This document shows, in pieces, positions 321-59,349 of a stretch of DNA of 64,000 nucleotides. Under the pieces are notes generated by a model that was not told where the DNA came from, ran no database searches, and was given only the letters and a program-made list of their open reading frames with translations. The translations under genes and the position numbers were made by a program. The stretch covers positions 415,638-479,637 of the forward strand of contig JBMNLN010000001.1 of NCBI GenBank assembly GCA_050952725.1. The letters run 5' to 3'. The DNA comes from Bacilli bacterium (GTDB taxonomy: Bacteria > Bacillota_I > Bacilli_A > RFN20 > CAG-826). Positions within the stretch are counted from its first letter, which is position 1; each line of letters begins with the position of its first letter.

Positions 321-462
321 AAAAACAGGTCGTCGATCTTTCAATCAACAGATTATTTTTTAAAAAATAACTCTGATAATTTTTGGTAAAAATTGCAAAA
401 AGTTTCTTTAATAGGAAAAATTAAATGAAAAAGCCAATAAAAAAGAGGATGAATCCGTATTT

Positions 463-1026
463 ATGATAGGAGCAGTGAGAAAAGAGACAAAAACTGAACT
501 TTTAATCGCTCTCCTTACCAAGATGCAAGCAGGTGACTTGTCCTCTTTTGATGAGTTTTTTGCATTGACGAAAAATCCTCTTTATTATTCGGTAATCGCC
601 GTTTTAAAAAATGAGACCGATACTGAAGATGTCATTCAAGAAGCTTATTTGCGCTTTTTAGAAAATCTTCCAAAAATCAATCCTAAACATAGCCCTCTCG
701 GCTATCTCCTGCGCATCGGCCGCAATCTAGCGATGGATGAGTTAAGAAATAGACAGAGAATCAATTACTTAAACGAAGAGGAAAATCCCGCCATCCTGAG
801 GATCGATGAAGAAAAAGTTGATGATGACTTTGCGCGTCTTCAGAAAAGAATGCGTGAAATTCTCCGTCCAGATGAGTACCAAATTGTCATTCTCCATGTT
901 CTGGAAGAACTTCCGCATCGCGAGGTCGCAAGAATTCTTGGGAAACCGCTTGGCACAATAACCTGGGCGTATAATAATGCGATTAAAAAACTTGAGAAAG
1001 GACTCCGTGATTATGTCGAAGATTGA
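463..1026 (+). CDS. ECF-type RNA polymerase sigma-70 family sigma factor
   Basis: 187 aa. Region 2-like segment (DVIQEAYLRFLENL ... LLRIGRNLAMDELRNR) and region 4 HTH (EYQIVILHVLEELPHREVARILGKPLGTITWAYNNAIKKL). Its end overlaps the next gene. Confidence 0.8.
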   Translation: MIGAVRKETKTELLIALLTKMQAGDLSSFDEFFALTKNPLYYSVIAVLKNETDTEDVIQEAYLRFLENLPKINPKHSPLGYLLRIGRNLAMDELRNRQRINYLNEEENPAILRIDEEKVDDDFARLQKRMREILRPDEYQIVILHVLEELPHREVARILGKPLGTITWAYNNAIKKLEKGLRDYVED

Positions 1027-2023
1027 TGATAAAAAAATCAAAGCTCTAATCAAAGAAAAACAAACTGATCCGAAAATCAATTTGACATCTGCGGAGATTT
1101 TAAAATTGCATAAAATTCGCCAAGAAGAAAAGAAAAAACGACAACTCTCCCAAAAGAAAAAGTCGCTTTGGCTCTTCCCCTCGAGTTTATTATTAGTGGC
1201 CTCGGCCGCAATTGCCGCGGTAATAATTATAAAACCTAATCAACCTGGATCATCTAGTAGTAGCGAAATCATTATTCCTCCCATTACCTATCAGGATAAA
1301 ATCCCCGGAGGTCAAAAAGGAGAATTCGCCTTTATGACCGCTTCCGCTTTAGCGTTTTCCGATACGGACAACATTCTTTTTAAGAAACCAGAAGTAATGT
1401 TTAACAACTCGAGTTCCATCGGTTCGATAGAGGATATTGAAACCACCCTCGATTATACGATGCCATTAATTGAGACCCTGACGGAGGTTAGTTCAGGTTT
1501 TAATTTTGAAGTGGAAGAAGGGGAATTTGAAGGGGAAATCAAGACATATGCCTATCGAATTCTTTTAACAGAAGAATTCTATATTTTATGCAATATGGAA
1601 TTTGAAGAAGATGAGGAAGAGACCGAAACCGAGATCGAAGGTGAACTTCATACCCCGAGTGCGTTCTATATGATTGAAGGCGAAAAAGAAGTGGATACCC
1701 TGACCCAGGAAACAGATTTAAGCATTAATGTTCATTTAAGTGAAAGTAAAATGATTGCTATTGAAAGCGAGCACGAGAATGACGAGCAAGAATTTATTTA
1801 TGAAATTTATGAAGATGATGAACTCGTCTTTTATTTAGAAATTGAAACCGAAGTTGAAGATGAACTCTTCTATATTTCAGTGTTAGTTGAACAAGACGGA
1901 GAAGAACTCGCTTTTATTGTCAAGGTTATCGATCAAGAGAATTATTATCTTGAAAGTGATCATTGGGTGATTACTGTCGAAGTCATTGGCCCTAAAACCT
2001 ATATTTATCATCGTGAAGAATAA
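1013..2023 (+). CDS. Anti-sigma-factor-like single-pass membrane protein with an acidic extracytoplasmic domain
   Basis: The in-frame ATG (MSKIDDKK) overlaps the sigma stop, suggesting translational coupling (the track start at 977 is further upstream). Lys-rich cytoplasmic N-terminus, one TM (LWLFPSSLLLVASAAIAAVIII), then a Glu/Asp-rich repetitive ectodomain. Confidence 0.45.
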   Translation: MSKIDDKKIKALIKEKQTDPKINLTSAEILKLHKIRQEEKKKRQLSQKKKSLWLFPSSLLLVASAAIAAVIIIKPNQPGSSSSSEIIIPPITYQDKIPGGQKGEFAFMTASALAFSDTDNILFKKPEVMFNNSSSIGSIEDIETTLDYTMPLIETLTEVSSGFNFEVEEGEFEGEIKTYAYRILLTEEFYILCNMEFEEDEEETETEIEGELHTPSAFYMIEGEKEVDTLTQETDLSINVHLSESKMIAIESEHENDEQEFIYEIYEDDELVFYLEIETEVEDELFYISVLVEQDGEELAFIVKVIDQENYYLESDHWVITVEVIGPKTYIYHREE

Positions 2024-2098
2024 AAAAATAAAAAAATCCAATAAAATCCTCCTGCTCCCCGTATTTATAGTGAAGGCAAAGAAAAGGAGGCCTAAAAA

Positions 2099-3064
2099 AT
2101 GAAAAAACAAATCACAACTCTCGGTATCACCTTCGCTGCAATCGCATTAGTCGGATGTAAGGGGGGGTCTAACAATCCTGTCGAAAATATCGACACCCTT
2201 GGCTTTGAAGCCGCAACTGCAATTTCTCTAATGACTGCTCCTAGTGGGGCCTTTGGACCTCAAGGAGCGATGAGGCGAGTTCCGTTATTCCTCAATGGAG
2301 GAAGTGAAGATTCAAGTGACACCACGGAAGTTAGCGATCCGAGTTCTCAACCGAATGATGTTACCGATCCATTCCTTGATCAATTGATTGTCCAACTTGA
2401 TTTTCTCTATTCTAATGGCAGTGGTTTTAAGAGCGAAACCAGTGAAAGCGATCGGGAAGATTATGCAAGGATGCAAACCATTTCGCTGACTGATGCGACG
2501 GGAAAAGAAGAAATTTACAAACTCTATTACAATGATGAAAAAGTTGAAATTGAAAACGATGATGACGATGATGATTCCGGATTAGATTATGAGATCAAAA
2601 CAAAAATCCGCGGAATTGCCATAGTCAATGATGTTGAATATCAATTTAAATCCAAAGTTGAAGTCGAAGTCGAAGCGGAAGATGATGAGTACGAAGAAGA
2701 AATGACTTTCCATCTCTTCCTTGATGATGATAACTATGTATTAGTCCAACAAGAAATCGAAATTGAAGCGGGTGAACGCGAAGAAGAATTCTTCTATCAA
2801 GTCGTCGTGGATGGAGAAACCGTCTATGAATATAATCTCGAAATTGAATTTGAAGACAATGACGAGGAAATGGAATTAGAAATTACGGTTAATGGCGACA
2901 CTTACAAACTTGAATACGAAGTTGATACAGGCGATAGCGACATCCTCGCCCATATCCAAGTTAAAGTTAATGGCGAATTAATTGCCACCTATGCGAAAGT
3001 GCTTGTGACTGACGCCGAAACTGGAGAAACCTCCATCGAATATCTCCTCATGGTCGAGGAATAA
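2099..3064 (+). CDS. Acidic lipoprotein, unknown function; its ectodomain resembles that of the anti-sigma-like protein
   Basis: Signal peptide plus lipobox (IALVGC), AAAGGAGG RBS, Glu/Asp-rich alternating hydrophobic-acidic repeats (YEYNLEIEFEDNDEEMELEITVNG). Confidence 0.6.
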   Translation: MKKQITTLGITFAAIALVGCKGGSNNPVENIDTLGFEAATAISLMTAPSGAFGPQGAMRRVPLFLNGGSEDSSDTTEVSDPSSQPNDVTDPFLDQLIVQLDFLYSNGSGFKSETSESDREDYARMQTISLTDATGKEEIYKLYYNDEKVEIENDDDDDDSGLDYEIKTKIRGIAIVNDVEYQFKSKVEVEVEAEDDEYEEEMTFHLFLDDDNYVLVQQEIEIEAGEREEEFFYQVVVDGETVYEYNLEIEFEDNDEEMELEITVNGDTYKLEYEVDTGDSDILAHIQVKVNGELIATYAKVLVTDAETGETSIEYLLMVEE

Positions 3065-3081
3065 AAGCCACATTAAATAAA

Positions 3082-3106
3082 AAGACCCCGGTCGGGTCTT
3101 TTTTTA
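3082..3106. terminator. Bidirectional rho-independent terminator between convergent genes
   Basis: AAGACCC-cggtc-GGGTCTT hairpin with an A-tract upstream and T7 downstream. Confidence 0.7.
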
Positions 3107-3155: not shown

Positions 3156-3632
3156 TTATTTTTCTTTTTCTTTCAAGAGTTCGACGATTTCTTTTAATAA
3201 AATCGCTTCTTCACTGCTTTCAGGTTCTGGAGCTGGTTCTTCAACAACTTCCTCAACAACTTCTTCCGCCTTGACCTTATGTAATAAGGCTTCGCGAGCT
3301 TTAGCGGCTGCCATCGCTACTTTGATGATAATGAATAAGACCAGTGAAATAATTAAGAAGTCAATAATTGTTTGAATGAAATTACCATATCTTAAGATGA
3401 CTGCTTCTTGGATGACTTCACCTTCAACTTCACCAAGGACAGCGGGTTTAATCACCCAAACCCAGTCGGAAACATCTTTTCCGGCCACGGCCGAAATAAG
3501 GGGCATAATCAAGTCGGAGACTAATGAATTGACGATTGCCCGAAATGCCCCACCGATGATGATACCAACCGCCATATCAAGGACGTTACCTCGGGTGATG
3601 AATTCTTTAAATTCTCGAAAAAACTTTTTCAT
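3156..3632 (-). CDS. mscL: Large-conductance mechanosensitive channel MscL
   Basis: MKKFFREFKEFITRGNVLDMAVGIIIGGAF is the canonical MscL N-terminus. Two TM helices and an acidic C-terminal tail. Start trimmed from the track ORF to the conserved Met. Confidence 0.9.
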   Translation of the reverse strand: MKKFFREFKEFITRGNVLDMAVGIIIGGAFRAIVNSLVSDLIMPLISAVAGKDVSDWVWVIKPAVLGEVEGEVIQEAVILRYGNFIQTIIDFLIISLVLFIIIKVAMAAAKAREALLHKVKAEEVVEEVVEEPAPEPESSEEAILLKEIVELLKEKEK

Positions 3633-3731
3633 AATACAATCTACCTTTCTATTTTTTAATTGTATCACATTTATTAAACCCCAAAAGAATAAAGCCGTAG
3701 GAACCGAAGACTAAATAAAAAGCATCATTAA

Positions 3732-7562: not shown

Positions 7563-8183
7563 ATGTTAAATCCCTCCTTAGACTTGTTAAGAGAAAGTCG
7601 CGAACATTTTACCAAGGTACGAAATTCTTTTGTTCAATCGGATATTAACTTCCTTCTTCGAAGAGAAAATTTTAAAGACCGGCTTCATGGTTTTTTAAAA
7701 CGCGATTATTATCAACGGGAAAAACTCTTTCGTGAGGGGCTAATTTTCTTCGCTTATACCTTTAAAAAATATCTGCCTCGTGCGAGTGAAGACGAATATT
7801 TTTTCACTTGGGCACTTTTTTCTTCGGAATTGATTTTTGAAAAAGAGCCGCACCTTTTAGGAGAAATTACTGAACGACTTTTAAGTGAATACAGCAACAA
7901 AAAACCTAAAGGTCGTGAAGAACGTCAAATTTATAATGCTTTACATGAAAAAATTTCAGAACCGCGTTATCTTCTCCTTCCTTTTGAATTGACTGAAGGA
8001 CATATGGTTTATCTGCAATTTATTGAAGGGTTCCCCGATCAAGTAATGAACTTTCAATTAGGGTATAACTTGATTATCGCCTTGCCTGGAAAGAGTAAAG
8101 AAGTTTTTTATCTCCCTAAACGTTATTGGTCAAAGAATTATAAAAAAAATTATGAGGAATCTCCTGAAACACCAAAAGAATAA
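7563..8183 (+). CDS. Hypothetical soluble protein
   Basis: 206-aa ORF with no recognisable motif and a Lys/Glu-rich tail. Overlaps the next ORF. Confidence 0.5.
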   Translation: MLNPSLDLLRESREHFTKVRNSFVQSDINFLLRRENFKDRLHGFLKRDYYQREKLFREGLIFFAYTFKKYLPRASEDEYFFTWALFSSELIFEKEPHLLGEITERLLSEYSNKKPKGREERQIYNALHEKISEPRYLLLPFELTEGHMVYLQFIEGFPDQVMNFQLGYNLIIALPGKSKEVFYLPKRYWSKNYKKNYEESPETPKE

Positions 8184-8682
8184 CATCATCGCAATCGCGA
8201 TTACTGAGGCAATTTCGCTTTTAATCTTGAGTATCTATCTCATCTTGCGACATTATTTTAAAACTGGCATCGGCAATACTTTTCGCATGATTTTTGCAGT
8301 CTTAACTTTAGGAATTTCTTTTGGTTCCTACTTAGTATTTTTCCTCTATAAAGGATTGAGAAAAAGCCAAAAAGAAAAGATGACGATTTTTGAATGGAAG
8401 AAGTATTATCGTGCGACCTTTATTGTGATTGCTATTTTTCTTTTGTTGTCAATAGGAGTTTATATTCTTGCTTGGAACTTTCCCCCCTATAACTACCCAC
8501 TTATAAAAGCTGCCTGCATTGTTTATGGGGTTATCATTATAATTGGCCTTTTATTATCCCCGCTTATTTATTTTACCATCATGGAACTGCTCGAACTTAA
8601 AAAGGATATTAATGAAACAATTGTTACTCGCAAAGAAGAACCACTTTGGCCAGAAGAAAGCGCAAAGAAAGAACTCGAATAA
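8152..8682 (+). CDS. Hypothetical integral membrane protein (about 4 TM helices)
   Basis: 176 aa with four hydrophobic segments, co-oriented with 7563..8183. Confidence 0.5.
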   Translation: MRNLLKHQKNNIIAIAITEAISLLILSIYLILRHYFKTGIGNTFRMIFAVLTLGISFGSYLVFFLYKGLRKSQKEKMTIFEWKKYYRATFIVIAIFLLLSIGVYILAWNFPPYNYPLIKAACIVYGVIIIIGLLLSPLIYFTIMELLELKKDINETIVTRKEEPLWPEESAKKELE

Positions 8683-13537: not shown

Positions 13538-16500
13538 ATGAAAAAGCGAAAATTATATCCTTTGTTTTTGGCGTTGTTAACCACTGTTTCTGGTTGCAAT
13601 AACGAGCGAAAAAGGACCGAAACGGCACCTTTTCTTGAGGCTATTAGTTACCATGCTGAAATGGTGAACCGCTATATTTTGGTTAATGAGCCTCTTGATT
13701 TCTCCCCATCTTATTTTTTGATGACTTATTCTGATGCAAGTACGGAAACGATTCCGTTTAACGAGTCGATAATCACAACCTACGATTCTTCTGTTTATGG
13801 CATTGATGAAGCTGAAGTTTGTTTGAATTTTGATGATTTAAACTATACCTTTGCTTTTGAGTATTTCGTGTTCGATAATGACAGCAATCGCACATTAATC
13901 AAAGCGATTGATGCTTTACCTTATCTCAACAAACTCACTACAGATGATGTTGAGACGATTATTGATCTCCTCAATACTTATATGCAATTAAGCGAAGGTG
14001 AAAAGGATTTTTTAATCAATCATTTTTCGATAAAAATCGAGCGACTTCGCCGCTCCGAAAAAGCACTTATCGATGCCTATTTTACGGAAAAGGAAAAAGA
14101 ATTATTCGATTTTTCCAATACGCTCAATGTTGGCGCTTATAGTGAGGAAGCTTTGGAGACAATCAGAAATTATTGTCTGGAATTCGCCGCAGGCGTCTAT
14201 ACTTCTCTTCAGGAAGTTGTCGATAAGTATGAAGAGGCTTTGCAAAAGATTAATGGCGTTGCCAAGAGAGAACTTTCTCTTGAAGAATATCGGGCGGAAA
14301 CAATTGCAGCCCTGAAGAATTGTTTTGTTATCTCCCTTAACTCCGTTGTAGAAGAAGCGGGAGTTTATTCATTTATTGAAACACCAAAAGATTACACCTT
14401 AGAAGCCCCAATTTCTAATATTGTGGTTTCCTTTGCAGACCAAGTAGCGATGATGGATGTTCCTGCGGAAATCGATGAGCTTTATACGGAAACTTATCGT
14501 GAAATCGAAGCAGTGCTCCTGCCGTTATTTATACCCGATGCAGTTACAAGTATTAATAATGTTTTCCTCAATACCAAAAACATTGAGGCGGACTTACTAA
14601 ATTCCTGGAACAGTATTACGATTTCTGTTTCTGGTCTCTATGACAACATCTTGGTTGATTACTTGGATGATAATCGGTGGTGGATTCCGGAAGCTTATCG
14701 CCCAAGTATCATTTTGGAAAAATCTGAAGATGAACTAAGGCTTAAAACATCGATAAGAACAGTGGTAGCTTCGTATAATGATTTGGTTTTTGAAATTTTG
14801 CGTGCGACATTAGAAAAGAACTTGGAGATGTTTTACGCGATTCATCGCAATCATAATCCCGCTTATGATACGACCGATGTTTTTTACTGGCATGTCATCT
14901 CTGATTATTTTGGTGATACCCCTCAACAGCAATTTATTTATGATGGTCCCTTAAGCGAATATAGAGGGGTCGCATATGGCAATTCGCGAAACAACACCTT
15001 CCGGCTTGTCGGCGCTTTTTACAATGATGCCTACCGCATGCGCACTTCGCCAGCCTTATTAGCAAAATATTTCGAATTAAGAACTAACATCGCCCCCGAT
15101 CCTCTTGCGGTTAAGGATATCAAAACCGATTTATCGCAGATGAAAACCGAGTACAACATCGGTGAAAATCTCGATTTGACAAACGGAAAGATTATCGTCA
15201 CTTATAACGATACCTCAACTTCTATCATCGAAATGAGTAATGAAATGATTCAGGGGGAGGTCGATATGGAAACTAGTGGTAACAAAACGATAACCCTGGA
15301 ATTCAAAGATGAAAAACTCAATGAAGACCAGACGGTTTCCTTCTCGATCGTGGTTTTATCAGATTCAGATGCCTTTAATGAGATTATTACCAAAATTACC
15401 GCTTTAAGAGAAATCGATCAAGCTAACGAAGAAGATATTGCCGATATTTTAGCGATTTTAACATTAATTAATCATCTCTCCAGTGATAATCAACAAAAAT
15501 TTGCTGAAGAATACCCCACTGAATATCAAAAATTGAAAAACTCTGAAAAAAAAGCCGCTAAATTATACGGTGAATTATCGATTAAGGAACCAATCCACGG
15601 ATACGAAACACTGAACTATTATGTCTATGATGCGACAAGCCGAGGTAATCTTGACACCTTATATCAACAAATGATTAATACCTCGATTACCAGTATAACC
15701 TTTGCGGCTATCGATAATGCAGTTCAAGCCTTTGATGATGAATATCAGGCCTTGACAATTGATGCCACTCTTAATTTGGAGCAATTCTTGAATGCGAGTC
15801 TAAATTCACTCAATCGCTTATGTGAATACCAAATTAATCAGTATGGCGGGACGATGGCGGCGGTCACCTTTGGCAATGTGACCAAAACCGTTAAAGATGA
15901 AACCAATGTTAAACCCTTATATGACGACTTGGTCAACGCCGTCAGCGCCGTCAGCAGCATTGAAGCAGCGACAGCAATTATTGCGGAAAATATCGAAGCG
16001 CTCTATAGCGAAATTATTACCGCCTATTCTGCAAACGCGAATGCAAACTTAAAACAAACGATGTATGATTTGCGCGCGACCATTTCGCCGTTATGGAACC
16101 AAGATGGCAATAGCGACATTATCGAAATGAACGGAGAAGGAAACGGCAAGATGACCACTGATTATCTTGATGATGATGGCTATTATTGTTGGTACGTCCC
16201 CAATGCGTTTCAAACTGGCAATCTCTACTCCAAGATTTCTGTAGGGATTTGCGCGAGTAAATATGAGATTTACAAGAAGTATGAATTTGCTTTAGTGGAT
16301 ATGTCGCGGGTGACGATGTATCGCAATATTATCCATGCTTGGTTATATGGGCATATGAGTGTCAATTGGTGGCAAATCATCTACTATTCCCCAGGATTTA
16401 CTTATGATGGATGTTTGCCAGAATATGAAGGCAATACCTATGCCGACAGTAGTTTCAGATTGTGGGGATGGGGTTGGCGACCTGGAAGTAAAGTGACAAC

Positions 16501-16552
16501 TGTCGCTGATTTAGTTGAAAAATACAATTACGATATCGCTCTTTATCTATAG
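13538..16552 (+). CDS. Giant surface lipoprotein (1004 aa), unknown function, first gene of a glycan-utilisation locus
   Basis: Lipobox LLTTVSGC. No recognisable catalytic motif. Confidence 0.6.
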   Translation: MKKRKLYPLFLALLTTVSGCNNERKRTETAPFLEAISYHAEMVNRYILVNEPLDFSPSYFLMTYSDASTETIPFNESIITTYDSSVYGIDEAEVCLNFDDLNYTFAFEYFVFDNDSNRTLIKAIDALPYLNKLTTDDVETIIDLLNTYMQLSEGEKDFLINHFSIKIERLRRSEKALIDAYFTEKEKELFDFSNTLNVGAYSEEALETIRNYCLEFAAGVYTSLQEVVDKYEEALQKINGVAKRELSLEEYRAETIAALKNCFVISLNSVVEEAGVYSFIETPKDYTLEAPISNIVVSFADQVAMMDVPAEIDELYTETYREIEAVLLPLFIPDAVTSINNVFLNTKNIEADLLNSWNSITISVSGLYDNILVDYLDDNRWWIPEAYRPSIILEKSEDELRLKTSIRTVVASYNDLVFEILRATLEKNLEMFYAIHRNHNPAYDTTDVFYWHVISDYFGDTPQQQFIYDGPLSEYRGVAYGNSRNNTFRLVGAFYNDAYRMRTSPALLAKYFELRTNIAPDPLAVKDIKTDLSQMKTEYNIGENLDLTNGKIIVTYNDTSTSIIEMSNEMIQGEVDMETSGNKTITLEFKDEKLNEDQTVSFSIVVLSDSDAFNEIITKITALREIDQANEEDIADILAILTLINHLSSDNQQKFAEEYPTEYQKLKNSEKKAAKLYGELSIKEPIHGYETLNYYVYDATSRGNLDTLYQQMINTSITSITFAAIDNAVQAFDDEYQALTIDATLNLEQFLNASLNSLNRLCEYQINQYGGTMAAVTFGNVTKTVKDETNVKPLYDDLVNAVSAVSSIEAATAIIAENIEALYSEIITAYSANANANLKQTMYDLRATISPLWNQDGNSDIIEMNGEGNGKMTTDYLDDDGYYCWYVPNAFQTGNLYSKISVGICASKYEIYKKYEFALVDMSRVTMYRNIIHAWLYGHMSVNWWQIIYYSPGFTYDGCLPEYEGNTYADSSFRLWGWGWRPGSKVTTVADLVEKYNYDIALYL

Positions 16553-20448: not shown

Positions 20449-22053
20449 TTGATTATGAAACAGATGAAAATTTTAATTCCGAGTGCGGTTTTACTGGCGA
20501 CTTTATGTGCGTGTACTGGTCAGACCTCACAAAAATTACATTCGCATCCCGAAGTTTTAACTGAACCGGGCACTTTTCCGATCATCAAGGAAGAATATCG
20601 CGGCGAAGTCTCTTTAAAAATTATGGGAGCAAGCAACGCGGCGATTAATCCTGATTGGTCGAAGAACAAGTTCTTTATTAGGTTTAGCGAAGAAACTGGA
20701 GTTGATTTCACCTTCAATGTCTATGGCGATGGGATGTACAATGACAAGAAAGCTTTTGCTTTAGCGACCAATAATAATTTACCCGACATCTTTTTTAAAG
20801 CAGCGCTCAATAACTATGACGAAGTAACTTATGGGGGAAAAACCCTTCGCCCTTTAAATGATTTAATCGATGAATATGCCCCGAATATCAAACAATTATT
20901 AGAAGATAATCCGATTGTCAAAAAATCAATTACGACCACGGATGGAAATATTTATGCCCTTCCTACCATCTATACCAATCTTCCGAATAATACGACATCA
21001 AATATGCGCGGTTTCTTTTGGATTAATAAAGATTGGATGGGAACCACCCCGATGCCTAAAACACCCGCAGAATATAAAGCAATTTTACAAACCTTTCGAC
21101 AAGAACGATTAAAAATCCGCGACTCCTATCCTTTAGTGGTCGCGGGAATTGACGATTTGCTCAAAATTTTCAATTTCTTTGGACTCGATCTAGTCAACTA
21201 CTGGGTTCAAGGTGATGAAGATGGTCAATTAGTTTTTGGCCCGAAAACCGACAATTTCAAACAAGGATTAGCTTTTATCAAATCGTTAATTGATGACAAT
21301 TTGATGAACGCTAACTGGTCGACCATGGAAGCAGCCGAAATCAATGCCCGCGGAGCAAGCGGTGATTATTACGGCAGTTTCGTCCAAGCTGGTCCCCAAT
21401 TTGCAGTAGGGTTTAACAAGATGCGGCAATATACGACCCTTGATCCGCTTTCGGTCACTGGTGAAGGCGGTTTCTGGGGAGCAAAAAACCCATTGCAAAG
21501 AGGATGTTTTGCTTTGACTTATGAATGCAAATATCCGGAAGCGGCTATCCGTATGATGGATGCTTTATATGATATTGATGCCCCTTATGGCCTTTGGTCA
21601 TCAATCGGTAAAGAAAACGAAGAATGGCAATGGCTTGACGAAGAGCATACAGCTTGGAAATCGACAATTAGTGATAATCAATATTCAGAAGTGATGTCGA
21701 CCACCATTATCCAAACTGGTGATGGAATGCCTTATGCGATTGATGAGTCTTTTTGGGAAAAACAAGCAACAGAAACTGATACTTATACCCGACCGTTAAG
21801 AAATCGCCAGATGACATTTGGTAAAGTGGGCTACCCCGATGTTTATTTTGATTCAGTTCAATTGACGGAAATGGCAGATTTATCGACTGACATCAATACA
21901 CATATTACCCGTTATATTGCTGGTGTTTTAAACGGCTCAAAAAATCTCGAGGGTGATTGGGAGACCTTTATCAAATTTTCTCGTCTTAATCTCGATCGCT
22001 ATTTAGAAATTCTGCAAGAGCGTTACGATGATTTTAATCAAGCGATTCAATGA
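20449..22053 (+). CDS. Extracellular solute-binding lipoprotein (LplA-type, family 1 SBP)
   Basis: 534 aa, signal peptide ending in a Cys-containing lipobox region (LLATLCAC), size and composition typical of LplA-like SBPs. Confidence 0.7.
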   Translation: MIMKQMKILIPSAVLLATLCACTGQTSQKLHSHPEVLTEPGTFPIIKEEYRGEVSLKIMGASNAAINPDWSKNKFFIRFSEETGVDFTFNVYGDGMYNDKKAFALATNNNLPDIFFKAALNNYDEVTYGGKTLRPLNDLIDEYAPNIKQLLEDNPIVKKSITTTDGNIYALPTIYTNLPNNTTSNMRGFFWINKDWMGTTPMPKTPAEYKAILQTFRQERLKIRDSYPLVVAGIDDLLKIFNFFGLDLVNYWVQGDEDGQLVFGPKTDNFKQGLAFIKSLIDDNLMNANWSTMEAAEINARGASGDYYGSFVQAGPQFAVGFNKMRQYTTLDPLSVTGEGGFWGAKNPLQRGCFALTYECKYPEAAIRMMDALYDIDAPYGLWSSIGKENEEWQWLDEEHTAWKSTISDNQYSEVMSTTIIQTGDGMPYAIDESFWEKQATETDTYTRPLRNRQMTFGKVGYPDVYFDSVQLTEMADLSTDINTHITRYIAGVLNGSKNLEGDWETFIKFSRLNLDRYLEILQERYDDFNQAIQ

Positions 22054-24896
22054 GGCAAATTATGAAAAGGAAATTGCGATTATTTCTATTATTACCAATG
22101 ACAATTCTCGCTAGCTGCAATCAAAAAAAAGTTGGTTCAGAAAATTTTGCCTTGTCGTATAAAAAGGGTAGTAATGGTTATTTCATTGTTTTGAGTCGAC
22201 ATAACCAAACTTATACAACTGAGGGGGGATCGCTTGGAGTGCGTTTTGATAAAAATGAATTCCGAGCTGATGATCCGATTTTTAAGGACTATACCACGGT
22301 TGAAGAAGTGAATGGAGTTCTCTTAGCAAAAGGACAAGTAGCTTCTAATTATGGAACGACTATCGATTTTATTGATTCTTTCAAGGTGGTTTCAAATCGG
22401 CTCTTAGTCAATCGCGAATTCTCGGTTACTAATGCGGGTGAAGATTTTGGCTTCATGGTGGAACAAAAATGGTTAGATACCAAAGAAGGCAAAATTCATG
22501 ACCGTGAAGGGTTTATTCCTGCTTCCTATTATGTCAATGGCAATCGCTCCTTCAATGATTGTTCTACGCGGATGTTTTTCGGTGGGGATTTGCTGGTGAT
22601 TCCTAGTGATGCCGTCTCCGTTTTAATGGCGAGTTCCTTTAAGGATGGTGTGGCTTTTGCGATGCTTGATACTTCGAGTGGCTATCGCGAGACCTCGATC
22701 GTTGATCGTTATACAGTTGATTCAGCTTATTTACACATTGATGAGAATTTTAATTTTTCTGGCATTGCTCTTAGTAATGAAGAGAATAATCGCATCGCTT
22801 ATAATTACCTTTACCCTGCTTATAAAAATGCGAACGAAGATAGTTTTAATTATCGGCTCCTTCCAGTCGAAAAAGGCTTAAAACGCAAAGTGTCGTATTC
22901 GCTCTTTATCGATAAATTTAATTCCTACAACGAGATGTATACTTCAATGTGGCGAAGTGCCTACGATGTATATCGCTACCTTGATAAGCGTTATCAGATG
23001 CCTGAGGTTTATGAAACCCTTTTAAAATATGTTCGCGATTCTTATTCAGATAACAACATTTGGGGGCCGATTCCCTTATATTTCACCAATGCTGATCATT
23101 ATCATCCAGATAGCGGTTTCCTTTTCCGTAATCTGGAAATGGGAATGTTCATGATTAAATATGGGCGAAAAACTAATGATCAAACCACGATTGATAATGC
23201 TTTAAAGGTCATAAATTATCAATTAGACAATGATAGTATTGATGCGCGGTTACAACTCTATACGCGCGATAGCAGCGTCTTTAAGCGCACGATGTTTGAC
23301 GGCTTAACTAGCACAGTTAATTTATATGCTTATTTAAAAACGACATCTTTTGGTGATGAAGTGATGAAAACCTTGATGGAGAAACTCTTTAATTACATCA
23401 CCGTGAAAGCGGAATTGTATAAAAATGAAACTAGTTTAATGGCGCTATCTTTTTATTCTCGCCTCTACCAGTTAAAGGACTTATTGTTTCTCGATTACGA
23501 TCAGGTCGCATTGAGATTGGCGGAGGCCGCGATTGCCCAAACCAAAGAATACTCAGGCTACTTTGGTGCAATCGAAAATAAGGATACGCGAATTTCCGTC
23601 GCTGAAGATTATATGCTTTTACTACGAGGGTTGATGACAATTTATGAAACCAATCATAACACCCGTTATTTACGCGAAGCGATTCGCTTAGCGAATTATT
23701 TAGAAACATTTAATGTTTTGACCCCCATGAATATGAATCCAGTTGGCGCCACTGGGGCCGAAGGATATAACTTTGGTTTTATTGGCAATGAGCGATTTCT
23801 TGGTAATGGTTATGCTTTTAACAATACTAACCATGGAATTCTTGATTGCCCCACCTCAAGTACTGTGGTGGAGTATATGAAACTTTATAAATATACTGGT
23901 GATCAGCATTATTTAGATTTTGCGGAATTCAAATTTATCAACTCTCTCCTTTATGTCAACATGGGAGATAAAGTTGGTCATATGGATGATCCCCTTCACT
24001 CTTCGGGCAATGGATTTATCAATGAGTTTTGCGGGAATGCGACCACGATTGAAGGATATCGCGATGGCGGTATGCGCGGAGCGGTTCATGATTCGATTAT
24101 CCCGTGGAATGTATACGAATTACTCGTGGGATTTGAATATTTAAAAGAGAATAATTATCCAGGATTTGCTGAAGATTATTCCTTAAGTCATAATCTTGCC
24201 CGGAACAAAGTTGTTACAATTGCGAATGACAATCTCGCTCATTCAGTCGCTGAAGCCTTTGATAATTTAGAGGATTCTTTCTACTTCGCAAATGAAGCTA
24301 GTGAATTTATCCTTGATTTGAATGAACAATGTCATATTGATTCGATTGAAATCGAGGCGGAAAAGAATTTAAATGTCTATCAATCGAGTAACAACATCGA
24401 TTTTGAAGAAATAACTAATTTAACCAACCTCGAATTAAAAACTCGATATATCAAATTTGTCACTGAAGCCAATAACAAAATCAATAATATTCAAGTTAAC
24501 GGCTACCCAGTTCACTATCAAGATTTAGCGGTGGATAGTTTGGTTTTAAATAATGCTGGTTCGATGAGAAATGCGATTGATAAATCCAATTATCAAACAA
24601 TTTGGAATGCGGGAAGTAGTCAAGAAACGCACATTCTAACTCTAGATTTACTAAGTGAATGCGAAATCTATCAAACTGCACTTATGTTTTCGGAAATTTC
24701 TTCAACCGCTTTTAAAATTGAAACCTCGCTCAATGGTGAAAATTATGTTGAATACGCGCTCGAAGCAGGCGACCAAGATAAATATATCTTCGTCAATCGC
24801 GGCTACCAAAAGGCCCGTTATGTGCGATTAACCATCTTGTCCTCTTCGTTAGAAAACATTTTGGTAAGAGACTTTAAGGTATTAGGGAGCCGATAA
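22050..24896 (+). CDS. Large surface lipoprotein (948 aa), unknown function, possibly glycan-active
   Basis: Lipobox (TILASC) after a short N-terminal extension, ATGA overlap with the SBP gene. No motif I can name with confidence. Confidence 0.55.
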   Translation: MRQIMKRKLRLFLLLPMTILASCNQKKVGSENFALSYKKGSNGYFIVLSRHNQTYTTEGGSLGVRFDKNEFRADDPIFKDYTTVEEVNGVLLAKGQVASNYGTTIDFIDSFKVVSNRLLVNREFSVTNAGEDFGFMVEQKWLDTKEGKIHDREGFIPASYYVNGNRSFNDCSTRMFFGGDLLVIPSDAVSVLMASSFKDGVAFAMLDTSSGYRETSIVDRYTVDSAYLHIDENFNFSGIALSNEENNRIAYNYLYPAYKNANEDSFNYRLLPVEKGLKRKVSYSLFIDKFNSYNEMYTSMWRSAYDVYRYLDKRYQMPEVYETLLKYVRDSYSDNNIWGPIPLYFTNADHYHPDSGFLFRNLEMGMFMIKYGRKTNDQTTIDNALKVINYQLDNDSIDARLQLYTRDSSVFKRTMFDGLTSTVNLYAYLKTTSFGDEVMKTLMEKLFNYITVKAELYKNETSLMALSFYSRLYQLKDLLFLDYDQVALRLAEAAIAQTKEYSGYFGAIENKDTRISVAEDYMLLLRGLMTIYETNHNTRYLREAIRLANYLETFNVLTPMNMNPVGATGAEGYNFGFIGNERFLGNGYAFNNTNHGILDCPTSSTVVEYMKLYKYTGDQHYLDFAEFKFINSLLYVNMGDKVGHMDDPLHSSGNGFINEFCGNATTIEGYRDGGMRGAVHDSIIPWNVYELLVGFEYLKENNYPGFAEDYSLSHNLARNKVVTIANDNLAHSVAEAFDNLEDSFYFANEASEFILDLNEQCHIDSIEIEAEKNLNVYQSSNNIDFEEITNLTNLELKTRYIKFVTEANNKINNIQVNGYPVHYQDLAVDSLVLNNAGSMRNAIDKSNYQTIWNAGSSQETHILTLDLLSECEIYQTALMFSEISSTAFKIETSLNGENYVEYALEAGDQDKYIFVNRGYQKARYVRLTILSSSLENILVRDFKVLGSR

Positions 24897-25769: not shown

Positions 25770-28700
25770 ATGCTGAAAATTAAAAAAAACCTCATGATCT
25801 TTTTATTTATCGGGTTGATATCGAGTTGTGGTGGCGGATCAAGCGCGATAGACAGCATTGTTATTGATGATATTGATTATACAGTTTCATATTACTTTGA
25901 AACTCTACAAGGGGAGTATGTTATCAATGACGAGTACACCTTGAATAAAACCGGAAAAGAGGGTAGTCCCATCAATATTGATATTCGCGAGTTTGAAGGT
26001 TTTACCTTTGATGAATATCATCCTTCAAATAAAACAGAAGGCACTTTATCTAGCGGAACATCGATTTTTGCTCTTTATTATTTACGAAATTCATACGATG
26101 TTGTGGTTTTGGGCGGCGAAGCCTCTAAGGCTATCGCTAAATTCGAAGAGACCATTACTATTACCCCATATCTTGGTGGGACTTCCATCACTTTAAATGA
26201 CAATTCCAAAGCCACACTCAATGGTCATGAGCTGACCCTAGGAGCAGAAGATGTCACAGTCATGTGTTTAACTCAAAATAAATATTCACTCAGCGATACC
26301 CTTCTTACTAAAGAGCGAGATTATTCAGCAAGTGTCAATCTTACTGTAAAAGAAAAAGACAACATTCAAGGCTTGGTGTTTAGTTTTATTTCTAAAAATC
26401 TCTCTGATGATGGACACGAGCAATTCTACCTCTTTGGCACCCGCAATGATGAAGTTGGTTTTTATCGTTATTCGGGCGGTTCGCTCAATCTAATTAAATC
26501 AAAAGTTATGACTGAGTTTGAACTCGGAAGCCACAAATATGCGATTAACTTTATGGAAACAGGAAGTATTAGATGTTTTATTGATGATATTAGCATCTTT
26601 AATGTCACCCAAGATGAAATCGTAAACCAAGGCTTTGCCCCAATTGATAGTTATGGAAGAGTAGGGGTTTACTCGCAAAAACAGTATTTTGAATATCAAA
26701 ATTTAATCGCGGAAAATCAAGTGGTCAGTTTAGAAGAAGCAAAGCAATATTACATCGACAAATATAATAAATTTATTTTTTCCCAACATGTTTTTGACAC
26801 CGCGACTTACACAATGAATGATGGAGATGTTCAGATTGACATTAAAGATGTCAAAGGATATGCCTTAAATGCCATCGAACTAGAGGAGAACATCAACGCG
26901 GCAAATAATCTACAAGAAATTGATACTGCTCTTGATGGTTATAACGAAATTAGAATAGCTGCAGCAAAAGCATACACCCAAACGCATTTACTTGAACTTC
27001 TTTACGATGTTCATTATGCCACCATCATGCTTTATGCAACCAAACATCAAACAAAATATTATGATTCGGCCACTACATTAGATCTTAGTTATTTAGTACG
27101 AGATGAAAGACAATACGTTCCTAGTGCTTACAAACTACGCGGAAGTGAAGGTGAAACTTGTCTTTTAGATCAATTGGATGTCGATCTTAATAAAGCGAAA
27201 ACCGAGCGAGAAATATATGTGATTTCTAACAAATATGCACTCGATTTAGTGCGAGCTTTGAGTTTTAGAAATTATGAATTCTATTATTGGAATCAATATC
27301 ATCAGTATCCCGGTTCTAATTATCAAGTTTGGGATATGCATTTTTATAATTATTTTGGTGCTGCTGGAAGTGGATTTAAGTATGTTGGAAAAGTATTTGA
27401 AGGTTTTACTTGGTCCAAAGATTTCCGTTTGAATCGCTTCCTTTTTAATCCCGATGAACCTAACTATGCAAAGACGATTCAAGAAGTTATCGGCATGACT
27501 GATTGGATGATTAAACACCAAACAATTCGGTCGCGACCTTATATAGTTACTTTGAATGCTGACGGGGGCACGTTAACAAACTATGAGTTAAATGGAACTT
27601 CGGCCAATGCACTCGTCCTACCAACTCCAAGCAAGGAAGGACATGTTTTTGATGGATGGTATCTCAACCGTCTTTTAAAAGGGACGAAACTCACTTCGGT
27701 GCCGCAAGGAAATTTGGAAGATAAAACCTTGTATGCTGCGTGGAAAAAAGATGGTGTTCGAGTCGAAAGCGTTATTCAACCTGCAGCCTACATTACGGAA
27801 AATATGATTATCCAACAAAATCAAGATATTGTTTTTTCAGGAAAAGGGAAAGATGGCGTTAATGTCACGGTCAGTTTCGATGGTGAAAACAAAACCACAG
27901 TGATTAGCGATTCAAAGTGGCAAGTTACTTTTACACCACGTCAGGCCGCATTTGATCCAAAGATTATCTCGATTAGCGGTGGCGGCGTAACTTATGCCTT
28001 TAAAAATGTTCTCGTGGGCGAAGTTTGGCTCTGCGCTGGCCAAAGCAATATGGAAATGCTCGCCTGCTGGCTCAATGGTCGGGGGGTGAAATACGCAGGA
28101 CAATACGGTGACTTTGATAATCTCGACAAAATCAGAGTATTTAGACAATATATCGATGATTTAGATCCTTTCGCTCAATTAAATGCTGATAACGATCGCT
28201 GGTGCATTCCAACTCGCGCTATGGATTTGGCGGATAAATCAATTTTATCAGTCGCCTTTGCTTGTAATTTACAAAAAGAACTCAACATCCCTGTTGGCGT
28301 TTTAACAAGTGCGCGTGGTGGCACCTATATTGAAGAATGGCTAAGCGAGGAAAATGTTAACCTGACAGGCAATACAATTCCTGCCCCCCATCAAGATATC
28401 GCTTCCCGCTATTATGAACAGATGACAGTTGATTTAATTAATGCGCGTTTGGCCGGGGTTATCTGGTATCAAGGTGAAAATAACTGGCCATATCCAGAAA
28501 TCTACAAAGGTCAATATAAGGCATTGGTTAGTCAATACCGAGACGTATTCAATAACCCGAACCTGCCAGTAATCGCCCAACAAATTGTTGATTATGGTGA
28601 AAATGATGCTGATTTTTCTGACATTAGAATTGCCCAATGGGAAGTGGCAGGAGAAATCGCAAACGCTTATTGCTCAGTAGCCATTGATACGGGGGAAAAG

Positions 28701-29081
28701 TATGACATTCATCCGATTGACAAACTAACTCTCGGTAGAAGAATGGGAAAAATTGCTCTTGAATTCGCCTATGGAGTGGGCAGCGATTCATTATCTTACG
28801 CTCCCATCAAGGCCGAAGTAATCGAAGGAAAGATTCGCATTTCCTTCAAAGAGGGTCAAATTATTCAATCGGGTGAAGAACTGCAGTTTTTCAAATTAAA
28901 AAAAGTCGACGGCACCTTCGTTTCGGTCACGGCGACATTAGAAAACAATCAAATTGTAATCGAAGATATCGATGATGCAGAGATGGTTTATTATGCGCAT
29001 CAACATTGGTTAGGACATGTCACCCTTTACGGGGGGAATGACTTGCCAATAACTCCGTTTAAAATCAATATTACAAGATGA
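25770..29081 (+). CDS. Giant lipoprotein paralog A: Listeria-Bacteroides (Flg_new) repeat plus SASA/DUF303-type carbohydrate esterase domain
   Basis: Lipobox LISSCGGGSS. Flg_new repeat (TLNADGGTL ... PTPSKEGHVFDGWY ... TLYAAWKKD). Esterase block VWLCAGQSNMEM at about aa 745. Confidence 0.75.
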   Translation: MLKIKKNLMIFLFIGLISSCGGGSSAIDSIVIDDIDYTVSYYFETLQGEYVINDEYTLNKTGKEGSPINIDIREFEGFTFDEYHPSNKTEGTLSSGTSIFALYYLRNSYDVVVLGGEASKAIAKFEETITITPYLGGTSITLNDNSKATLNGHELTLGAEDVTVMCLTQNKYSLSDTLLTKERDYSASVNLTVKEKDNIQGLVFSFISKNLSDDGHEQFYLFGTRNDEVGFYRYSGGSLNLIKSKVMTEFELGSHKYAINFMETGSIRCFIDDISIFNVTQDEIVNQGFAPIDSYGRVGVYSQKQYFEYQNLIAENQVVSLEEAKQYYIDKYNKFIFSQHVFDTATYTMNDGDVQIDIKDVKGYALNAIELEENINAANNLQEIDTALDGYNEIRIAAAKAYTQTHLLELLYDVHYATIMLYATKHQTKYYDSATTLDLSYLVRDERQYVPSAYKLRGSEGETCLLDQLDVDLNKAKTEREIYVISNKYALDLVRALSFRNYEFYYWNQYHQYPGSNYQVWDMHFYNYFGAAGSGFKYVGKVFEGFTWSKDFRLNRFLFNPDEPNYAKTIQEVIGMTDWMIKHQTIRSRPYIVTLNADGGTLTNYELNGTSANALVLPTPSKEGHVFDGWYLNRLLKGTKLTSVPQGNLEDKTLYAAWKKDGVRVESVIQPAAYITENMIIQQNQDIVFSGKGKDGVNVTVSFDGENKTTVISDSKWQVTFTPRQAAFDPKIISISGGGVTYAFKNVLVGEVWLCAGQSNMEMLACWLNGRGVKYAGQYGDFDNLDKIRVFRQYIDDLDPFAQLNADNDRWCIPTRAMDLADKSILSVAFACNLQKELNIPVGVLTSARGGTYIEEWLSEENVNLTGNTIPAPHQDIASRYYEQMTVDLINARLAGVIWYQGENNWPYPEIYKGQYKALVSQYRDVFNNPNLPVIAQQIVDYGENDADFSDIRIAQWEVAGEIANAYCSVAIDTGEKYDIHPIDKLTLGRRMGKIALEFAYGVGSDSLSYAPIKAEVIEGKIRISFKEGQIIQSGEELQFFKLKKVDGTFVSVTATLENNQIVIEDIDDAEMVYYAHQHWLGHVTLYGGNDLPITPFKINITR

Positions 29082-59322: not shown

Positions 59323-59349
59323 GCTTTTTCCCTCTGTATCTTTAATCAT

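Follow-up and report, generated by a model that had tools for sequence, protein, structure and literature searches.

An ECF sigma factor module from a Bacilli genome in which an anti-sigma-like membrane protein and an extremely acidic lipoprotein carry paralogous extracytoplasmic domains

Results

A self-contained three-gene module

In a 64-kb stretch of DNA from a Bacilli bacterium, referred to here as the window, an ECF sigma factor gene, a gene for an anti-sigma-like membrane protein (ORF2) and a gene for a very acidic lipoprotein (ORF3) form what is, on strong support, a self-contained ECF signalling module. The ectodomain of ORF2 and the lipoprotein are paralogues, as shown by sequence profiles, and in some lineages the sensor appears to have been rebuilt from its neighbour. 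The best explanation that we can offer, to which we assign a probability of about 0.5, is that the sigma factor is held at the membrane by ORF2, that the ORF2 ectodomain stands sentinel as a copy of this lipoprotein, and that the signal is ended by the lipoprotein once it has been induced.

An initial annotation of this region had proposed genes for an ECF sigma factor, an anti-sigma-like protein and an acidic lipoprotein, and all three open reading frames were confirmed at 463..1026, 1013..2023 and 2099..3064. Its description of the overlap between the sigma gene and ORF2 as in-frame was wrong, as the two genes overlap by 14 nt out of frame, with positions 463 and 1013 in different frames. 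The features of the module and its border are as follows.

434..461, plus strand: P1, ECF-type promoter motif CCAATAAAA-N13-CGTATT before the sigma gene (exact match; putative autoregulation)
463..1026, plus strand: gene for an ECF (group 4) sigma-70 family sigma factor, 187 aa (Pfam; NCBIfam TIGR02937)
1013..2023, plus strand: gene for an anti-sigma-like single-pass membrane protein (ORF2), 336 aa (open reading frame, topology, AF2 model, lipoprotein-only HMM)
2038..2065, plus strand: P2, the same motif (exact match, CCAATAAAATCCTCCTGCTCCCCGTATT), 35 nt ahead of the ATG of ORF3
2099..3064, plus strand: gene for a very acidic lipoprotein (ORF3), 321 aa (open reading frame, lipobox, family HMM)
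3079..3103, both strands: bidirectional intrinsic-terminator-like hairpin closing the module (10-bp stem, T-runs on each strand)
3156..3668, minus strand: MscL gene, convergent with the module and sharing the hairpin at 3079..3103

No terminator-like hairpin was present between ORF2 and ORF3, and an Rfam scan gave no family at gathering score anywhere in the 64-kb window.

The sigma factor and its promoters

The product of 463..1026 matches Pfam Sigma70_r2 (E 5.8e-12, residues 40-99) and Sigma70_r4_2 (E 1.4e-6, residues 134-177) and scores 74.5 bits against NCBIfam TIGR02937, for which the cut-off is 42.9. Region 3 is absent, as in the ECF (group 4) sigma factors, and by these domain matches the identity of the product as an ECF sigma factor is established. 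The nearest relative of solved structure is B. subtilis SigW (5wuq, E 4.4e-12). Assignment as a SigW equivalog was considered and excluded, with scores of 65.2 bits for NF007223 (against 209) and 60.7 bits for TIGR02948 (against 243). The annotated start at ATG 463 is probably misplaced, because it lies only 3 nt past the conserved -10 element CGTA. The codon GTG 475 is located 15 nt past the same element, is preceded by AGGAG at 468-472 and yields an N-terminus equal in length to those of the orthologues in lineages L001 and L011; spacing, AGGAG and orthologue length all favor it, and the true product probably starts there and has 183 aa.

Matches to the promoter motif were found at only two places in the 64-kb window, even with one mismatch allowed, against 0.17 expected. 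In nine other lineages, a motif with CCAAT stands in front of the sigma gene at the position of P1, and L011 has a CCAAC variant there. Another 11 lineages besides the window have a motif ahead of their lipoprotein gene at the position of P2, and 22 sites agree on one consensus across lineages. In L010 and L020, where the sigma factor is only ~30% identical, the two-promoter logic is kept with drifted motifs. The arrangement CCAATA-N16-CGTATT, with an AAC-like -35, a CGT-containing -10 and a spacer of ~16 nt, is that of an ECF autoregulatory promoter in 10 lineages, as judged from motif conservation. This conservation strongly supports the assignment of CCAATAAAA-N13-CGTATT as the sequence recognized by the sigma factor. 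Because the motif precedes both the sigma and the lipoprotein genes, direct control of the lipoprotein gene by the sigma factor is very likely. The motif occurs exactly twice, and the lipoprotein would therefore be the main output of the module and its sole other output within the window.

The membrane protein and the lipoprotein

The predicted topology of ORF2 bears out the earlier description of a Lys-rich segment, one transmembrane span and an ectodomain of about 250 aa. The cytoplasmic N-terminus (residues 1-50, nt 1013-1162) is Lys-rich with a net charge of +10, a single hydrophobic span SLWLFPSSLLLVASAAIAAVIIIK covers residues 51-74 (nt 1163-1234), and the 262-aa ectodomain consists of a disordered linker followed by a folded acidic part at residues ~100-336 (nt ~1310-2020). 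The AF2 model of ORF2 (pLDDT 78) contains cytoplasmic helices at residues 6-18 and 26-54. Across lineages, the N-terminus of ~50 aa is conserved as DDxKIKKIIxxNVxxPxIKLSxxxIL.

ORF2 had no significant Pfam or NCBIfam match. Class I anti-sigma domains of the zf-HC2/RsiW, RskA and DUF4179 types gave no Pfam or NCBIfam match at E up to 1, with either ORF2 or the 12 aligned N-termini, and a profile of these 12 N-termini returned designed proteins and noise only from PDB sequences and Pfam. Class I domains have ~80-90 aa in four helices, often with an HxxxCxxC motif, and the cytoplasmic part of ORF2 has ~50 aa and no Cys/His motif. The view that ORF2 is not a standard RsiW/RskA-type anti-sigma thus holds, as no Pfam anti-sigma family was matched. 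The size, the topology and the two predicted helices of the N-terminus are compatible with class II (CnrY-like) domains, in which ~45 cytoplasmic residues form two helices that wrap around the sigma factor; this class has no scorable sequence signature. From gene context and shape, we infer that the basic two-helix N-terminus may bind the sigma factor and hold it at the membrane in a class II manner. A metal-sensing site at Cys193/His213 of ORF2 was considered as a candidate and rejected, as conservation of both residues stops at the closest relatives.

Bacterial lipoproteins that are substrates of Lgt and Lsp have a basic n-region, a hydrophobic h-region and, among the first ~25 residues, a lipobox of the form [LVI][ASTVI][GAS]C. 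ORF3 conforms to this pattern, beginning with the signal region MKKQITTLGITFAAIALVGC, which contains the lipobox LVGC with Cys20. Its D+E content is 25%, compared to 11-15% in the other lipoproteins of the window. After maturation, the lipoprotein carries a net charge of -61, and the ORF2 ectodomain one of -55. The matching acidic style that had been noted for the two proteins is real, as is the DDDDDD run of ORF3, which was located at residues 154-159 (nt 2558-2575).

Homology and fold of the two ectodomains

Profile comparison shows that the ORF2 ectodomain and the lipoprotein are paralogues, homologous beyond shared composition. An hhalign comparison of the two small families gave a probability of 94.4 (E 9e-8) and a score of 50, compared to a maximum of 17.5 over 100 column shuffles. 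An HMM built from 135 lipoproteins, with neither window protein included, scored ORF2 at 50.5 bits over residues 143-310, compared to a maximum of 4.6 bits over 400 shuffles, and scored ORF3 at 253 bits. The protein of lineage L003 was left out of some alignments. Pairwise BLASTP of ORF2 against ORF3 was weak on its own (E 0.04), and by sequence statistics significant relatedness is limited to the C-terminal ~125-170 residues; hhalign of the N-terminal ectodomain halves was not significant (12.1, shuffle mean 11.6). The N-terminal helical parts are collinear in the alignment and have the same predicted architecture, and homology of these halves is suggested by this collinearity, by the P0002 match from residue 106 and by the shared architecture.

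For both proteins, AlphaFold predicted a common plan in which two helices precede 14 long antiparallel strands, with a pLDDT of 78 each and values above 90 over most strands. In ORF3 (pTM 0.74), the helices lie at residues 31-46 and 91-105 and the 14 strands span residues 111-318. The initial annotation had suggested profile alignment and AlphaFold as a check on ectodomain homology, and the two together returned homologous domains with one confidently predicted fold; given the shuffle controls and the models, the ectodomains are not the unrelated low-complexity sequences without a predicted fold that would have spoken against it. The predicted strands are amphipathic: hydrophobic residues make up 67-71% of one face, and acidic residues 38-48% of the opposite one. 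The reported alternation of hydrophobic and acidic residues is consequently upheld as the two faces of these strands, but its reading as repeats is not, as true internal sequence repeats are absent and self-comparison of the family profile gave a weak ~30-residue shift with a probability of 22%.

With a threshold of E<=1e-3, the family to which both domains belong has 965 cluster representatives, and with E<=1e-10 it has 547; almost all members are lipoproteins. Among the best 154 matches, 114 pass a strict lipobox-plus-hydrophobic filter, most of the others show a lipobox Cys, and three are of the transmembrane type. A poly-D/E loop at the position of the DDDDDD run is a family feature, with 41% D+E in the loop and a run of at least five D/E in 58 of 115 members, and His-rich loops are present in a few members. 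No covering family was found in a Pfam scan of 94 members, which gave scattered single weak matches only, and ORF3 itself had no significant Pfam or NCBIfam match. A Foldseek search against the PDB gave nothing with E <0.1, and the family profile gave signal-peptide-level matches only among PDB sequences. The unclosed 11-strand barrel with a helical lid of RseB and LolA-like proteins was not found in the predicted fold. These models and searches (Pfam, NCBIfam, PDB) strongly support the acidic two-helix, 14-strand lipoproteins as a large unannotated family without a solved relative.

Conservation of the module and origin of the sensor domain

The three-gene order is kept in the window and in L001, L003, L004, L007, L011, L012, L013, L016, L017, L018/19 and L020. 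With L010, in which the lipoprotein gene is divergently oriented, this makes 13 lineages, and the overlapping sigma/membrane-protein gene pair is retained in all of them. In L009, a lipoprotein of the family occurs without an adjoining sigma gene.

In neighbour-joining analysis, the sensor ectodomain of lineage L004 (A_L004) joins its own lipoprotein (L_L004) in 85 of 100 bootstraps, and this pair joins the L018 lipoprotein (L_L018) in 100 of 100. Identity between A_L004 and L_L004 is 50-57% along the entire ectodomain. For L004, the nearest sigma relative is that of L018 (61% identity), which carries a window-type ectodomain, and the N-terminus and transmembrane span of the membrane protein are orthologous even where the ectodomain has been replaced (L004 versus L018). 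Monophyly of all sensor ectodomains was recovered in 0 of 100 bootstraps. Because in some lineages the sensor nests with its own neighbouring lipoprotein, a polyphyletic sensor ectodomain, re-derived in those lineages from the lipoprotein next to it, is strongly supported by the sequence comparisons. The grouping of the window-type sensors in the neighbour-joining tree could partly reflect long branches. Within the window clade, sensor and lipoprotein are ~20% identical, and the sensor ectodomain has for the most part lost the motifs SDREGY and YxLYYN that are conserved among the lipoproteins, which argues against an identical binding site for the two proteins in this clade.

The earlier proposal of a sensor paired with a partner or decoy is strengthened by the 13-lineage module, the shared promoter motif and the re-derivation of the sensor from the lipoprotein. 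A literature search returned no description of the module, nor of ECF systems in Acholeplasma-like bacteria.

Discussion

ECF sigma/anti-sigma pairs are common, and for most groups the sensed signal is still to be determined. The architecture described here hints at the logic of one such circuit, as the sensor is paralogous to the one output in view and, in some lineages, was copied from it anew, and it allows the hypothesis to be framed that sensor and effector see the same agent. In the explanation that we favor, the short, basic, two-helix N-terminus of ORF2 would tether the sigma factor at the membrane, and the ectodomain would be a sentinel copy, so that an agent able to bind, neutralise or damage this supercharged protein would also strike the sensor. 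The likeliest agents would be polycationic molecules or changed divalent cations, with surface proteolysis as another candidate; a cationic ligand is pointed to by the charge of the domains and by the conserved poly-D/E loop. The action of the agent would open the membrane protein to regulated proteolysis and free the sigma factor, which would then upregulate its own operon and the lipoprotein, and the lipoprotein would turn the signal off either by absorbing the same agent or by rebuilding an anionic surface layer.

The strongest competitor, which we regard as less likely, is a direct-partner homeostat of the RseA/RseB kind, in which the lipoprotein would shield the sensor ectodomain from proteolysis, scarcity of free lipoprotein would release the sigma factor, and the circuit would gauge its own product instead of an external ligand. 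In the RseA/RseB (MucA/MucB) systems of Proteobacteria, the extracytoplasmic domain of the anti-sigma factor is served by an extracytoplasmic partner from the same operon that modulates proteolysis, and RseB protects RseA; the pairing of an anti-sigma ectodomain with a second extracytoplasmic protein of the same operon is the likeness to the present module. The lipoprotein has its own sigma-type promoter in a conserved module, heterodimers are frequent among paralogous domains, and a sensor rebuilt more than once from the adjacent lipoprotein fits a need for mutual recognition. However, a net charge of about -55 to -61 on both domains disfavors their association unless it is bridged by cations, and the pair in the window clade has diverged to ~20% identity.

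Returning to the sentinel-copy explanation, a bolder version of it, which we hold to be rather doubtful, is that the sensor, repeatedly rebuilt from a product of its own regulon, monitors a surface protein with a charge of about -60. This protein would have the shape, unseen so far, of a soluble 14-strand beta-can around two helices with a poly-acidic exterior, and would provide Mollicutes-like Bacilli with a polyanion layer, or a cation or polycation buffer, comparable to teichoic acids.

It is improbable that the membrane protein has no anti-sigma role and is simply an anchored paralogue of the lipoprotein, co-transcribed with the sigma factor as a member of its regulon; control of the sigma factor would then be transcriptional or lie with an unlinked regulator. 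Such a reading would accommodate an N-terminus that has no match to anti-sigma families in Pfam, NCBIfam or PDB sequences and a cytoplasmic part that is short, with ~30 conserved residues. It is at odds with the overlapping, translationally coupled gene pair of all 13 lineages and with the orthology of N-terminus and transmembrane span despite ectodomain replacement, and the N-in topology and ~50-aa two-helix shape fit class II domains, which lack a strong sequence signature in any case. Much less probable still is a membrane-inserted beta-barrel forming an acidic, cation-selective pore from the 14-strand domain: the two amphipathic helices could fill a hydrophobic interior, and the anchors are a lipobox or a transmembrane helix, as in monoderm Bacilli/Tenericutes-type genomes. 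We know of no outer membrane or BAM machinery to be expected in such cells. That ORF2 and ORF3 resemble each other through composition alone, as Glu/Asp-rich low-complexity sequences without a shared fold, as the BLASTP value and the N-terminal halves might suggest, is effectively refuted by column- and residue-shuffle controls that fall far short of the observed scores, by confident AF2 models of one architecture and by the identity within the L004 pair.

Among known systems, the conceptually closest logic is that of BlaR1/BlaZ and MecR1/PBP2a, where the extracellular sensor is homologous to the induced protein family and both recognise the same molecule; there, as here, a sensor is paralogous to an induced effector. 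BlaR1 and MecR1 differ in being zinc proteases that cleave a repressor, in their fold and in their beta-lactam ligand. SigW/RsiW provides the closest solved and named relative of the sigma factor and a similar promoter style, the SigW consensus having an AAC-type -35 and a CGTA -10 that are 16 nt apart; the differences are a score well under the SigW equivalog cut-off, a -35 of CCAATAAAA and the lack of a zf-HC2/RsiW domain in ORF2. In the SigV/RsiV system of B. subtilis and its relatives, the RsiV ectodomain is the receptor for lysozyme, an extracellular cationic protein, and binding leads to site-1 cleavage and regulated intramembrane proteolysis (PMC4183432, PMC5014341). As with SigV/RsiV, the ECF sigma gene is succeeded by a gene for a single-pass protein, anti-sigma-like in the present case, the organism is of the Firmicutes type and the operon is autoregulated (putatively so here). 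It differs in that ORF2 lacks any Pfam match, including to the ectodomain family of RsiV, in its predicted 14-strand meander and in the addition of a lipoprotein that is paralogous to the ectodomain and served by a separate sigma-type promoter; the link to lysozyme is RsiV's. CnrY is a single-pass protein with a 45-aa cytoplasmic two-helix domain of a class without a canonical sequence signature, and the Cnr system of Cupriavidus metallidurans responds to divalent cations through two sigma-dependent promoters, of which one is autoregulatory (PMC6851896). CnrH/CnrY/CnrX and the present module share a three-component layout, and the ORF2 N-terminus is likewise short (~50 aa) and basic with two predicted helices. 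CnrX, however, is a separate membrane-anchored protein that senses metal with a four-helix bundle and is not related to CnrY, whereas the third protein here is a paralogue of the ectodomain and looks like an output; the host is moreover of the monoderm Bacilli type, and a conserved metal site is lacking.

The promoter CCAATAAAA-N13-CGTATT, together with its cognate sigma/anti-sigma pair, could be developed as an orthogonal regulatory part. A large family of extremely acidic, unannotated lipoproteins with a confidently predicted fold is now defined. The organisms behind the family members that were traced to their source have an essentially uncharted surface biology; these members came from uncultured Bacilli/Tenericutes-type genomes and metagenome assemblies, one of them from Candidatus Onthovivens.

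A sigma factor gene and two acidic surface proteins

The three open-reading frames described in the initial annotation are all present, and we read them as an ECF sigma/anti-sigma module whose sensor comes from a large, unannotated and structurally unmatched family of acidic lipoproteins and whose one visible target is a paralogue of that sensor. The module is of interest for work on signal transduction and on Mollicutes-like Bacilli. It comes from a MAG of an uncultured Bacilli bacterium; locus tags ACOX3K_01985 and ACOX3K_01990 fall on module genes, and the contig is 1.33 Mb long.

434-461, promoter motif upstream of the sigma gene
463-1026, ORF1, sigma factor
1013-2023, ORF2, membrane protein (sensor)
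2038-2065, promoter motif upstream of the lipoprotein gene
2099-3064, ORF3, lipoprotein
3079-3103, bidirectional hairpin closing the module
3156-3668, minus strand, mscL

The ORF1 product is an ECF sigma factor, matching Sigma70_r2 and Sigma70_r4_2 and scoring 74.5 bits against TIGR02937 (cut-off 42.9). It falls far under every named equivalog cut-off (for SigW, 65 bits compared to 209), and its nearest solved structure is B. subtilis SigW (5wuq, E 4.4e-12). Since the -10 element CGTATT (456-461) stops 1 nt short of the annotated ATG 463, and its CGTA core 3 nt short, translation more likely starts at GTG 475. This codon follows an AGGAG (468-472), and a start there would yield 183 aa, compared to 182 aa in orthologues, with an N-terminus equal in length to theirs.

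ORF2 and the sigma gene share 14 nt, read in different frames, which contradicts the in-frame overlap first described. The predicted architecture of a basic cytoplasmic segment, one transmembrane helix and a large ectodomain was borne out, with a net charge of +10 across the 50 N-terminal residues, a single hydrophobic span at residues 51-74 (SLWLFPSSLLLVASAAIAAVIIIK) and a 262-residue ectodomain with a net charge of -55. As also described, the next gene encodes an acidic lipoprotein (lipobox LVGC with Cys20; mature net charge -61) with a DDDDDD run, located at residues 154-159. Neither protein matched any Pfam or NCBIfam model. Other lipoproteins of the window contain only 11-15% D+E, indicating that this acidity is specific to the ORF3-type family.

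Homology and predicted fold of the ectodomains

Pairwise BLASTP of ORF2 and ORF3 was marginal (E 0.04). Run on two small alignments, of 3 and 5 family sequences, hhalign gave a probability of 94.4 and an E of 9e-8 over 125 columns, with a score of 50 compared to a maximum of 17.5 among 100 column-shuffled controls, none of which came near. A family HMM was trained on 135 lipoproteins, with ORF2, ORF3 and every membrane-anchored form withheld. It gave 253 bits for ORF3 and, across residues 143-310, 50.5 bits for ORF2, while the best of 400 shuffled sequences reached 4.6. The two ectodomains are thus homologous; the ECF sigma factor and the paralogous sensor/lipoprotein pair are both at least strongly supported. 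For the helical N-terminal portion of the ectodomains, sequence statistics alone show no significance; it aligns collinearly, and its predicted structure is the same in both.

Of the alternating hydrophobic-acidic repeats originally proposed, the alternation stands, in the form of amphipathic β-strands with 67-71% hydrophobic residues on one face and 38-48% acidic residues on the opposite one, and the sequence repeats do not, as self-comparison of the family profile for internal repeats gave only a weak 30-residue shift (probability 22%). The strand predictions suggest a soluble barrel-like or strongly curved sheet, in which the hydrophobic face would wrap two helices and the exterior would be poly-acidic.

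The lipoprotein family and its genomic context

Searched with a family profile, 1.84 billion cluster representatives yielded 965 members at E ≤ 1e-3, of which 547 reached E ≤ 1e-10. Nearly all are lipoproteins, and a cytoplasmic N-terminal segment with a transmembrane helix occurs in only 3 of the 154 best members. The family is further marked by a poly-Asp/Glu loop that immediately follows a conserved YxLYYN motif (41% D+E, with a run of at least five D/E in 58 of 115 members). Both this motif and SDREGY are largely lost in the window-type sensor, so the binding sites of sensor and lipoprotein should not be taken to be identical.

A few members carry a His-rich loop at the poly-D/E position. 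In relatives P0007, P0009, P0011, P0012 and P0047, the loop after YYN has grown to 50-130 residues and is enriched in His, Asp, Gly and Asn (HGHDNHD and HHGGHGHHG, for instance), a composition that hints at transition-metal binding. In another relative, P0068 (504 aa), the helix-plus-strand domain apparently occurs twice in tandem, with four matched stretches in the profile search.

In almost every context examined, the family lipoprotein adjoins an ECF sigma gene and an overlapping membrane-protein gene, and the ectodomains of these membrane proteins also match the lipoprotein HMM. Among related loci in other genomes or assemblies, the module is present in L001/L002, L003, L004-L006, L007/L008, L011, L012, L013, L016, L017, L018/L019 and L020, as in the window, and in L010 with divergent orientation; the L009 lipoprotein stands alone. 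Sources named for the related sequences are uncultured Bacilli, "Tenericutes bacterium ADurb.Bin239", Bacillales UBA1361 and Candidatus Onthovivens. Conservation across 13 lineages is strongly supported. The lineages also have in common the cytoplasmic N-terminal sequence of the membrane protein (DDxKIKKIIxxNVxxPxIKLSxxxIL). Both in the window and in L001/L002 (L001 7371-7868), an mscL gene converges on the lipoprotein gene and shares the bidirectional terminator; it is probably not part of the module, since it is absent from more distant loci. Endonuclease_1 genes flank the module in L003 and L007.

Promoters of the module

Alignment of upstream regions revealed a conserved element upstream of the sigma genes, with a second copy per locus upstream of the lipoprotein gene. 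The consensus of 22 sites, CCAATAAAA-N13-CGTATT(t)AT, pairs an ECF-style -35 CCAAT (CCAAC in L011) with a -10 that contains CGTA, across a spacer of 16 nt. Even with one mismatch allowed, it occurs exactly twice in the 64-kb window, where 0.17 are expected by chance, which strongly supports two matching promoters for the module. A terminator-like hairpin between ORF2 and ORF3 was not found. Because both genes share this motif, they are very probably direct targets of the sigma factor, which would thus autoregulate its operon and drive expression of the lipoprotein.

The sigma factors of L010 and L020 are only ~30% identical to that of the window. Within each of these loci, a drifted motif is nevertheless common to both promoter regions: in L010 (4763-5000) it reads CCAACAA-N15-CCGTT, on both strands, and in L020 (2780-2990 and 4672-5000) ...TGTTGTATA. 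From these sequences, promoter and sigma factor appear to co-evolve. A third CCAATAAA-N-CGTA copy lies inside a secreted Endonuclease_1 gene beside the module (L007 6756-6732, minus strand; L008 6020-5996) and may be a chance match or an internal promoter.

Replacement of the sensor domain

In a neighbour-joining tree (210 HMM-aligned columns, 100 bootstraps), the membrane-protein ectodomains were not monophyletic, with all-sensor monophyly in 0 of 100 bootstraps. Window-type sensors formed one clade (96/100), the L004 sensor grouped with its own lipoprotein (85/100) and that pair with the L018 lipoprotein (100/100), and the L010 and L020 sensors grouped with the lipoproteins of those loci (100/100). 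Over the whole ectodomain, the L004 sensor and the lipoprotein next to it share 50-57% identity. The L018 sigma factor is closest to that of L004 (61% identity), yet the L018 sensor is window-type. This difference indicates that a copy of the target lipoprotein took the place of the sensor domain on at least one occasion, and probably on several. Support for the window-type clade could be inflated by long branches, which do not, however, account for the grouping of L004.

A proposed sentinel mechanism

The overlapping genes, the N-in topology and the ~50-aa two-helix basic N-terminus argue for the membrane protein as a putative anti-sigma factor. This N-terminus resembles CnrY-type class II domains, in which a 45-aa cytoplasmic segment forms two helices with no canonical signature (PMC6851896). 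The ectodomain may serve as a sentinel copy of the lipoprotein, such that agents binding or damaging the poly-anionic surface protein, most likely polycations or divalent-cation shifts, would also hit the sensor and lead to its proteolysis. The freed sigma factor would then increase the lipoprotein, which would buffer the agent. BlaR1/BlaZ offers a parallel, as a sensor paralogous to its own output. A second parallel, the sensor as receptor of a cationic agent, is RsiV, itself the receptor for lysozyme (PMC4183432, PMC5014341).

The chief alternative is a direct-partner homeostat: the lipoprotein would bind the sensor and shield it, much as RseB does for RseA. Such association is disfavoured by the strong like charges of the two proteins unless cations bridge them. 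The original observation stands with minor corrections, and its interpretation as a sensor and partner (or decoy) is supported as far as computation reaches.

Other features of the window

Genes for very large predicted lipoproteins (620-1100 aa) are unusually dense in the window, and one further gene has domains possibly linked to restriction or defence.

13538-16552, very large lipoprotein
22050-24896, very large lipoprotein
25770-29081, very large lipoprotein
29176-32481, very large lipoprotein
39297-40526, MrcB-like N-terminal domain and NOV_C domain
51083-53677, very large lipoprotein
53686-55638, very large lipoprotein
57481-59349, very large lipoprotein
60676-63636, very large lipoprotein

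Four sizeable frames (176-534 aa; 7563-8183, 8152-8682, 20449-22053 and 34370-35515) had no Pfam match at E ≤ 1e-5. From its domains, the 39297-40526 product is possibly an McrB-type restriction or defence component. Several of the large lipoproteins carry domains related to carbohydrates (Big_3, F5/8-C, SASA esterase, Listeria-Bacteroides repeat), and their genes adjoin ABC permeases, GH42, GH43 and arabinose-catabolism genes; the region looks like one for surface-anchored polysaccharide utilisation in Mollicutes-like Bacilli. The lipoproteins at 25770-29081 and 29176-32481 are tandem paralogues of ~1100 aa with a shared domain order, a Flg_new repeat at ~590 followed by a SASA acetylesterase at ~750-980.
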